DNA from: Escherichia phage vB_EcoM_PTE-Eco09
Sequence record: PQ306574.1
Direction: 5' to 3' (one strand)
Length of the DNA stretch: 64,000 bases
Position numbers and translations under genes: made by a program. The notes beneath the pieces are model-generated. The model had not been told where the DNA came from. It saw only the letters and a program-made list of their open reading frames with translations, and made no database searches. Below, piece after piece: positions 5,490 to 6,602 of the stretch (positions are counted from its first letter, which is position 1; each line of letters begins with the position of its first letter).

Positions 5490-6602
5490 AAACTGATATG
5501 GGGCTTTCACTGGTGACAGTGATCGAATAACCTGCTTAATTGCTGGGAAATCTCTAAGGAGACAATCAGCAGCAGTTGCATTTTGAGCTAACGTGTCTTA
5601 TAATGTATATAAATATTGATATACATTGGAGGCGCGAGATGAAAGACATTTTAAGAAAGTACGAAATACATAACGAGGAAGCATTAAACGACTACATTAA
5701 ACTGGTGTCTAATCCGTATCAGGGTGAAGAATATTCCGAGGTGCATCATATATGCCCGAAGTCAATGTTCCCTGAATATCTGTTAGATAAATGGAATCTT
5801 GTTAGGCTTAAGTTTGAAGACCACGTAGAGGCGCATCGGTTATTGTGATTAATATTCAATAACGGTGAATGCAAGAGAGCATATGCTTTCATCTCTAGAG
5901 GATCTTATGACGATAAAGTGAAGGCGTTAACCAAAGATGCATTCGCTGGAGACAATAACCCAGCCAAGCGAGAGGAAGTTAGACTGAAAATATCCGAAAA
6001 CAAGACCGGAAAAGCCAGAACCGATATGAGCGGAAAGAAGTATTTCGGGGCTGATGAGGACATTATACGAAAAGGTCTTGATTCTATGGCAGAAAAGCTA
6101 AAGAATACTGTTATCGTTAAGGATAAGGAAGGAAATCGGTTTAGAGTTAGTTGTGATGATCCTAGATATGTTTCCGGTGAGTTAGTATCATTTAATGCTG
6201 GAGAGAAGCGCGAAAATTCAGCGTCTAAACGACCGGAAGTTATGAGTAAAATAATGTCAAAACGTAATGAAACTTATGCTAAATTTGCAAGTTTCACATT
6301 TGATGAAATGGTGAATTTTCTTGTTGAAGCACATAATTCAGGAAAAGAGATCTTTGGTAAGAAGAAACCTTTTGCCAAGAATTATAGCGGATACTGTAAG
6401 AGAACCCCGTTTGATCAAAATGAGCTTAAAGATGCAGTTGTTCAACGACTATCGAAAGGGTAACGAACCGAGTAGAGTAGAATCAAGCGATTCGAAATGG
6501 CAGGATTCTCTATGAGAATGTGATATAGTCTGATCTACATGGTGACATGTAGCAGTTCGCAAGAGAACGGGCGCGGGAGTAGCGAACCGCGCTGAACATA
6601 TG
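5490..6602 (+). mobile_element. putative group I self-splicing intron in gene 43
   Basis: U at 5489 can pair with G5500 (P1: CCCU/GGGG); terminal G at 6602; P10 pairing GAUAU (5495-5499) with exon 2 GUAUC (6603-6607). Core-like elements AAUUGCUGGGAAA, AAUCAGCAG and GAUAUAGUC; GNRA hairpins. Joining the exons restores [18 protein letters not shown]. Confidence 0.65.
5639..6463 (+). pseudogene. intron-encoded HNH homing endonuclease with NUMOD3-like C-terminal region, interrupted by an in-frame TGA (5846-5848)
   Basis: HNH-like motif EVHHICPKS...NLVRL...HVEAH in the first 69 codons; the same frame continues after the TGA into NUMOD3-like NPAKREEVRLKISENKTGK. RBS GGAGG before ATG 5639. Confidence 0.6.

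Follow-up and report, generated by a model that had tools for sequence, protein, structure and literature searches.

A very probable mobile group I intron in motif A of gene 43 of an RB49-like Escherichia phage

Gene 43 and its insertion

The 64,000-nucleotide (nt) stretch of DNA analyzed here, from Escherichia phage vB_EcoM_PTE-Eco09 (record PQ306574.1; "the window" refers below to this whole stretch), carries a T4-type gene 43 for a family-B DNA polymerase that is interrupted by an insertion at positions 5490 to 6602, and we are confident that this insertion is a mobile group I intron of the IA2 type located in motif A of the polymerase. The genes around it follow the order 44, 62, regA, 43, uvsX, and the region is 97 to 99% identical to that of RB49-like coliphages of the genus Krischvirus. 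Exon 1 of gene 43 spans positions 4288 to 5489 (plus strand, as are all features given here), with its open reading frame (ORF) starting where homology to the RB49 coding sequence (CDS) places the start and its end set by alignment to RB49; its last codons read ...GAC CTT ACT TCC CT (D L T S L-). Exon 2 spans positions 6603 to 8079 and begins G TAT CCA TCA (-L Y P S). The insertion point thus separates the second base of a leucine codon from the third, in the motif A sequence D-L-T-S-L|Y-P-S.

Comparison with intron-free RB49 defines the element exactly. The RB49 gene is one continuous CDS of 2,679 nt that lacks an intron and reads ...AGT CTG TAT CCA... at the insertion point, and alignment to it reveals positions 5490 to 6602 of the window as a precise insertion of 1,113 nt. 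Gene 43 of the window without the insert has the same length as the RB49 gene (2,679 nt), is 98.06% identical to it, and differs in 1 of 892 residues. The exon-exon junction then reads ...CUUACUUCCCU|GUAUCCAUC... (with a longer left side, ...ACUUCCCU|GUAUCCAUC), and the joined product aligns without gaps to residues 363 to 504 of the RB69 DNA polymerase, with the junction between L415 and Y416 in motif A. A preliminary description of this DNA, made from its letters alone, had noted that the gp43 frame ends with a stop codon at 5494-5496, that the downstream frame is open upstream of its first methionine, and that joining 5489 to 6603 gives CT+G, a leucine codon, and restores motif A. The reading of the ORFs bears out the first two points (the stop is a TGA that follows ...SFDLTSLN, and the motif A residues are encoded from 6604, with no start before the methionine codon at 6673, hereafter M6673), and the third agrees with the RB69 alignment and with the length of the RB49 gene. 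That exon 1 ends in U (U5489) and the insert in G (G6602), as it also stated, can be read directly. A junction one base downstream, with an insert of 5491 to 6603, would likewise restore Leu-Tyr; it was rejected because exon 1 would then end in A.

The sequence just downstream of the junction bears on a different arrangement, in which a free-standing endonuclease cassette has split the polymerase into 43A (ending ...TSLN) and 43B (beginning at M6673), which assemble as two subunits in the manner described for Aeromonas phages 44RR and 25. The GenBank annotation would agree with such a split, since each of the 13 records that carry the element shows either a pair of "DNA polymerase" CDSs or a misc_feature, with no intron in any, and phage 25 provides a precedent in which an endonuclease gene lies between 43A and 43B. 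In the exon 2 frame of the window, however, the nearest upstream stop is TAG 6580 and no in-frame ATG, GTG, or TTG occurs before M6673, leaving this as the only possible start of a 43B, and no Shine-Dalgarno sequence lies upstream of it. A protein starting there would drop 23 residues, including part of motif A, that are identical to RB69 residues 416 onwards. The 70 nt that would be lost (6603 to 6672) evolve like coding sequence, with four of five polymorphisms among related phages at third codon positions, which argues that this segment is translated in the exon frame, as is possible only after splicing. The insert moreover holds a complete group I core, described below, and the split in phage 25 lies about 90 residues further downstream, the intron of that phage being in motif B. 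With neither a start nor a ribosome-binding site before M6673, and with part of motif A lost, a two-subunit polymerase is very unlikely.

The group I core

The conserved elements of a group I core are present in canonical order: P (AAUUGCUGGGAAA, 5538 to 5550), Q (AAUCAGCAGC, 5564 to 5573), R (GUUCAACGACUAU, 6440 to 6452), and S (GAUAUAGUC, 6523 to 6531). All four align to the consensus of the Rfam group I model, RF00028. The preliminary description had recognized P, Q, and S as core-like, which the alignment upholds, but had been unable to assign the 5' strand of P7 by eye; this strand is GACUAU (6447 to 6452), within R, where its overlap with the final codons of the ORF inside the intron makes it hard to spot.

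The secondary structure comprises helices P1 through P10 with P7.1 and P7.2, and was assembled from direct reading, the Rfam alignment, minimum-free-energy (MFE) folding, and counts of paired and compensatory positions in a structure alignment with other introns. P1 is formed by CCCU at the end of exon 1 (5486 to 5489) and the guide GGGG (5500 to 5503), as seen by direct reading and in the Rfam alignment. It sets U5489 in a wobble with G5500, and this wobble and the terminal G6602 (omega-G, from direct reading and the alignment of copies) are the splice-site features of a group I intron. The loop of P1 holds GAUAU (5495 to 5499), which by direct reading can pair with GUAUC of exon 2 (6603 to 6607) as P10; both pairings had been proposed in the preliminary description and can be read off the sequence as it gave them.

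P2 (UCACUG 5507 to 5512 with CAGUGA 5517 to 5522) is found in the MFE fold and has compensatory changes in five of its six pairs, and its GUGA loop, like that of P9, is of the GNRA type, in keeping with the GNRA hairpins noticed earlier. P3, previously a candidate, pairs CCUGCU (5531 to 5536) with GGCAGG (6499 to 6504) in the MFE fold, is 100% paired across the aligned introns, and shows compensatory changes in five of six pairs. The region of J3/4, P4, and P5 (5538 to 5571), which contains the P and Q elements, was placed by the Rfam alignment; within it P4 joins UGCUGG (5541 to 5546) to UCAGCA (5566 to 5571), 100% paired and with three compensatory pairs, and P5 joins 5551-5554 to 5559-5562, as also found in the MFE fold. 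P6/P6a is an 18-bp helix with one bulge (5572 to 5589 with 6423 to 6441; RNAduplex and MFE) that loops out an endonuclease gene. Its 3' strand is embedded in the endonuclease ORF, at the 3' end, and both strands are kept in phage JSE, a relative with an internal deletion.

On the 3' side, P7 pairs GACUAU (6447 to 6452) with AUAGUC (6525 to 6530) in the Rfam alignment, and none of the six aligned introns departs from this sequence. Between P7 and the 3' strand of P3, an insert of 44 nt forms the extra helices of subgroup IA2, namely, P7.1 (about 6453 to 6476; MFE), identical in sequence to the P7.1 of an Acinetobacter phage intron, and P7.2 (GAAUC 6480 to 6484 with GAUUC 6489 to 6493; MFE), 100% paired and with four of five pairs compensatory. 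Having both helices, the intron would belong to subgroup IA, like the introns of T4; the IA2 label is a provisional one that follows from the architecture. The P8 hairpin (6505 to 6510 with 6514 to 6519) is supported by the Rfam alignment, the MFE fold, and the structure counts and is followed by J8/7. A candidate P9.0, from our own reading, pairs AU in J7/9 (6533 to 6534) with AU at 6600 to 6601. P9 (6535 to 6541 with 6546 to 6552) has MFE and covariation support, P9.1 (6555 to 6558 with 6565 to 6568) was found in the MFE fold, and P9.2 (6570 to 6576 with 6587 to 6593), also in the MFE fold, shows compensatory changes relative to introns of phage LIMEstone1 and a Vibrio phage that are discussed below.

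Covariance-model searching and folding had both been suggested as checks, and both were carried out. In E-value mode, RF00028 matched window positions 5400 to 6700 with 33.2 bits (E = 2e-6), with the 5' half misplaced inside the ORF, and matched the shorter JSE copy with 42.9 bits (E = 1.5e-9), with model positions 1 to 253 correctly placed. The 5' half of the window intron alone scored 23.5 bits (model positions 1 to 107) and the 3' half alone 30.7 bits (model positions 133 to 253), the two matches agreeing in strand and following one another in the correct order. The ORF-deleted RNA folds with an MFE of -88.5 kcal/mol (z = -3.7), in a structure that recovers P2, P3, P5, P6, P7.2, P8, P9, P9.1, and P9.2 and thus most of the helices given above.

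Comparison with related introns supports the same helices. In a structure alignment of the window with five introns that pass the Rfam threshold (51 modeled pairs, 500 shuffles), 93.1% of pair cells are standard pairs, compared with 31 to 41% when the partners are slid, and 29 of the 51 pairs have changed on both sides; none of the 500 shuffles reached the observed values. A BLAST search with the ORF-deleted core gave matches in 880 phage records. Many of these are introns that interrupt essential genes, and the matches include introns of phiKZ, beta22 thyA, T-even nrdB, and phi92 nrdD, and the nearest relatives include phage introns of the IA2 type. The core is accordingly homologous to group I introns in both sequence and structure.

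These results also bear on whether the insert is skipped in some other way. Translational bypassing occurs in gene 60 of T4-type phages and inteins are often found near motif A of family-B polymerases, which would lend such ideas some general plausibility, and a group II intron might also be considered. All three candidates were rejected. The exon 1 frame stops 5 nt into the insert, at TGA 5494-5496, and stops abound in the rest of the insert, which excludes an intein; 1,113 nt is far beyond known bypass gaps; and no group II intron was matched in the Rfam scans of the window, whereas the group I match was significant. We regard any of these mechanisms as improbable in the extreme.

The endonuclease gene and the case for splicing

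The gene looped out of P6/P6a encodes an HNH homing endonuclease of 274 codons (825 nt; 5639 to 6463), identified with PHROGs, tblastn, and comparison of copies. The intact endonuclease of the related phage ECD7 matches PHROG 12434, "HNH endonuclease" (E = 6e-131), and phrog_655, "homing endonuclease" (E = 2.5e-19), and an HNH motif, EVHH..N..H..H, is readable in the product of the intron ORF. By tblastn, the endonuclease is 35% identical to I-LimII of Dickeya phage LIMEstone1, and it is 34 to 39% identical over 93 to 100% of its length to proteins of LIMEstone1, Salmonella phage maane, and Vibrio phage 1.255.O. A search of PDB sequences with the endonuclease returned nothing significant, and kinship to the I-TevIII-like protein of the T-even nrdB intron, also considered, was not significant (E = 0.74).

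In the window this gene is broken by an in-frame TGA at positions 5846 to 5848, after codon 69; a codon-by-codon comparison with seven full-length public copies shows TGC or TGT (Cys) in all of them at this point. The gene of the window also has two private missense changes. All 10 other fetched full-length copies are annotated with the intact 825-nt ORF. Between phage JK32 and the window the endonuclease differences are synonymous in 19 of 26 codons, and this mostly synonymous pattern indicates a gene that has been under selection in the lineage and is newly broken in the window. Given the premature TGA, the window intron has probably lost the capacity to move unaided.

Upstream of the gene, a hairpin of 18 bp at positions 5592 to 5636 (dG = -18.6 kcal/mol, z = -5.6) buries the Shine-Dalgarno sequence GGAGG (5629 to 5633) of the endonuclease. 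Within it, at 5608 to 5615, lies a sequence resembling a T4 late promoter, TATAAATA, in place of which JSE, ELT4, and JEP8 carry TATAGATA. Gibb and Edgell are said to have reported in 2009 that control by a hairpin and a late promoter governs I-TevI and mobE, and by analogy the arrangement suggests similar control of the intron endonuclease. The sequence TATAAATA occurs 5 times in the window, against 5.4 expected, which leaves a late-promoter role without statistical support; with the count at chance level, a promoter function, and with it this regulation of the endonuclease gene, can only be put forward as a presumption.

The group I reading of the preliminary description is supported by the precise insertion, the RF00028 matches, the compensatory changes, the splice-site features, and the looped-out HNH gene. 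Several observations weigh against it. A scan of the whole window in Rfam gathering mode returned no match, and neither the window nor the JSE copy reaches the curated gathering threshold of RF00028, which at 50 bits is an operational cutoff and not a biological feature; the significant matches all lie below it. The structure tested in the alignment was drawn from the window sequence, which favors it over the slid controls. P1 contains only four exon pairs, and the endonuclease has no match in Pfam or NCBIfam. A 1-nt deletion at about 6600, seen in the window alone (CAUAUG, compared with CAUAAUG in the 10 other full-length copies and in JSE), lies 2 to 3 nt before the 3' splice site, though it leaves intact the terminal AUG, G6602, and the proposed P9.0. 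Finally, that every copy would be spliced is something we infer from sequence.

The low score of the window is due to the ORF of about 830 nt inside P6, not to absence of the fold. A control, the T-even nrdB intron with a full-length 810-nt ORF from the T4-like phage G10400, gave no RF00028 match at E <= 1e-3, and three other phage introns that adjoin or contain endonuclease ORFs scored 31 to 39 bits, while ORF-free relatives of the window core, from phiKZ, Acinetobacter phage YMC13 (two introns), Pseudomonas phage KIL1, and Bacillus phage beta22 (thyA), scored 79 to 97 bits. As the gathering scan misses the window intron and the nrdB control has no match, surveys likely undercount phage introns that carry ORFs. 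The compensatory changes, for their part, occur in the five other introns and are independent of the drawing of the structure from the window.

The deletion near 6600 and the nonsense codon at 5846 to 5848, both private to the window, could mean that the mobile element is truly decaying, or they could be errors of sequencing. They are also what would favor a view of the insertion as a group I relic that no longer splices in this phage, in a genome that is defective or contains sequencing errors, as both changes could be degenerative or errors of assembly. The deletion, however, keeps the terminal AUG, P9.0, and P10, and apart from this one base the ribozyme core has no private difference from the copies of isolated lytic phages (positions 5602, 5612, and 6560 vary among the other full-length copies). 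The exons are intact, with 1 amino acid change in 892, and splicing does not need the endonuclease. We consider a dead insertion highly improbable.

The route that we propose for a splicing-competent intron follows established group I chemistry. Gene 43 would be transcribed through the intron, whose RNA would fold into the P3-P9 core, with the U5489-G5500 wobble displayed in P1. Free guanosine would bind in P7 and attack after U5489; the terminal G6602 would then take over the guanosine site in P7, with P9.0 and P10 setting its position, and ligation of the exons would follow. Ligation would recreate the CUG codon and yield an 892-residue polymerase. In related phages the intact endonuclease presumably cuts intron-free gene 43 alleles during coinfection, and the repair that follows may copy the intron together with a short stretch of flanking exon.

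Distribution, relatives, and earlier records

The full-length insertion is present in 11 public records that represent 10 phages, namely, ECD7 (two records), JK32, G5211, MIZ4, MIZ5, kvi, G2494, Cognac, ELT4, and JEP8. These copies share the site and core of the window intron, are 96.7 to 98.8% identical to it over window positions 5300 to 6800, measure 1,114 nt (compared with 1,113 nt in the window), and, unlike the window, have an intact 274-codon endonuclease ORF. Phage JSE (two records, for an overall total of 13 Krischvirus records) has the same element at the same nucleotide position, with a core about 99% identical and the same flanking exon codons. A 650-nt internal deletion (window positions 5727 to 6376) has taken most of its endonuclease gene, whereas the window keeps the full-length gene with the TGA and one base fewer near the 3' end. 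Dozens of Krischvirus genomes are intron-free, and presence varies even within species recognized by the ICTV, as between kvi and RB49 and between JEP8 and GEC-3S. Four states of the site are found in the genus: an empty site (RB49), an intact endonuclease (ECD7 and others), a nonsense-mutated one (the window), and a deleted one (JSE).

The last 11 nt of exon 1 contain six synonymous differences from RB49 (TTA ACA AGT CT to CTT ACT TCC CT), including a switch of a serine codon from AGT to TCC that is impossible in a single step. At the insertion site RB49 gene 43 reads TTGACTTAACAAGTCTG|TATCCATC, and the exon version found with the intron reads CTTACTTCCCTG. It is through these changes that the exon acquires CCCU, the partner of the guide GGGG, and they may represent flanking exon that was brought in with the intron and is needed for P1. 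A search of the collection for an intron-free allele with the intron-type exon codons, which would have marked either a past loss of the intron or the donor, found none; the best intron-free match to the spliced junction was 89%. From the patchy distribution and this cluster of synonymous exon changes near the site, we infer that the intron has spread through homing by its endonuclease.

Relatives at the same site outside Krischvirus come from another phage family, the Ackermannviridae, in which the phages LIMEstone1, maane, and Vibrio phage 1.255.O have a homologous but only distantly similar intron of 1,171 to 1,183 nt, with the homologous HNH endonuclease, at the identical nucleotide of PolB (D-L-N-S-L|Y-P-H). 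These introns share the exon end UCCCU and the guide GGGG with the window intron and can be aligned with it over the full length of the core, where P2, P3, P8, P9, and P9.2 show compensatory changes. The LIMEstone1 intron, placed by alignment in PolB motif A, spans positions 2309 to 3491 of locus L020, and Adriaenssens et al. (2012, PMC3296691) give I-LimII as a putative intron of the polymerase gene in LIMEstone1. Further downstream in PolB, both LIMEstone1 and maane contain another insertion, with I-LimIII on the opposite strand. We lean, by a small margin of belief, toward the view that one mobile intron lineage has a single nucleotide in PolB motif A (S-L|Y-P) as its target in both Straboviridae (Krischvirus) and Ackermannviridae, carrying with it the exon codons (..UCC CU) that its guide needs for P1, and that Krischvirus displays every stage of its homing cycle at once.

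Other T4-type systems also offer parallels. Gene 43B of Aeromonas phage 25 (Petrov, Ratnayaka, and Karam 2010, J Mol Biol 395:457), the same host gene in a T4-type phage, is described in its GenBank note as "split by group IA2 intron," and the IA2-type core of that intron is about 70% identical to the window core over 122 nt. It differs in lying in motif B (..SLYGALG|N) and in having no internal endonuclease gene, and phage 25 also has a true 43A/43B split. Its self-splicing was reportedly demonstrated experimentally. The T4 introns in td, nrdB, and nrdD (with I-TevI, I-TevIII, and I-TevII) have in common with the window intron the subgroup IA architecture with P7.1 and P7.2 and likewise loop an endonuclease gene out of a peripheral helix, in host genes that differ from that of the window; the 3' core of the window intron is 77 to 81% identical to T-even nrdB introns.

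The preliminary description had implied that the element was new, and this is unsupported, since the element of JSE is the same and was reported in 2010 as a putative group I intron in gene 43 with its endonuclease gene deleted, in a review that gave neither structure nor splicing data (Petrov et al. 2010, Virol J 7:292, PMC2993671). Our literature search found no paper on the full-length Krischvirus form or on splicing of introns of the window, JSE, or LIMEstone1 type. The element is thus already recorded as putative in the literature and unannotated in public genomes, real but ordinary; what the window adds is the nonsense-mutated endonuclease allele and the placement of the P7 helix. None of the intron-bearing Krischvirus records has an intron feature or a joined CDS, ELT4 and JEP8 start the second polymerase CDS later, and the ORF of the insert is annotated as a hypothetical or HNH protein. 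Annotation of gene 43 as two CDSs is a systematic error, the correct form being a single spliced gene with an intron feature.

Although the current understanding of group I introns is unchanged by these findings, the locus offers a clean natural series of empty, intact, nonsense-mutated, and deleted endonuclease states, and its distant same-site relative in the Ackermannviridae is usable for studying homing, coconversion, and decay. If the proposal of a single lineage across families is true, the locus would be a tractable natural system for intron gain, decay, loss, and cross-family transfer in lytic phages.

Elsewhere in the window, the td (50940 to 52160) and nrdB (55766 to 56932) genes are uninterrupted, as the preliminary description stated, and nrdA is also intron-free. 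The window td can be aligned with RB49 td from end to end and is 12 nt shorter, owing to a small in-frame indel. Between nrdA (52229 to 54472) and nrdB lies an ORF for a 215-residue endonuclease with HNH and NUMOD3 domains (55118 to 55765, plus strand; Pfam PF07460, E = 2.7e-9), in a gap of about 1,300 nt that in RB49 measures about 590 nt and holds only three small ORFs; in T4, this position is that of the free-standing homing endonuclease mobE. A further gene, at 48001 to 49260 (plus strand), encodes a 419-residue protein in which a treble-clef zinc finger accompanies four CapR-homology repeats (PF21817, E = 2.7e-31). Of this gene, which lies between gene 32 and frd, only the final 315 nt correspond to the RB49 "endonuclease" gene RB49p240 (88%), the remainder of the gene having been replaced.

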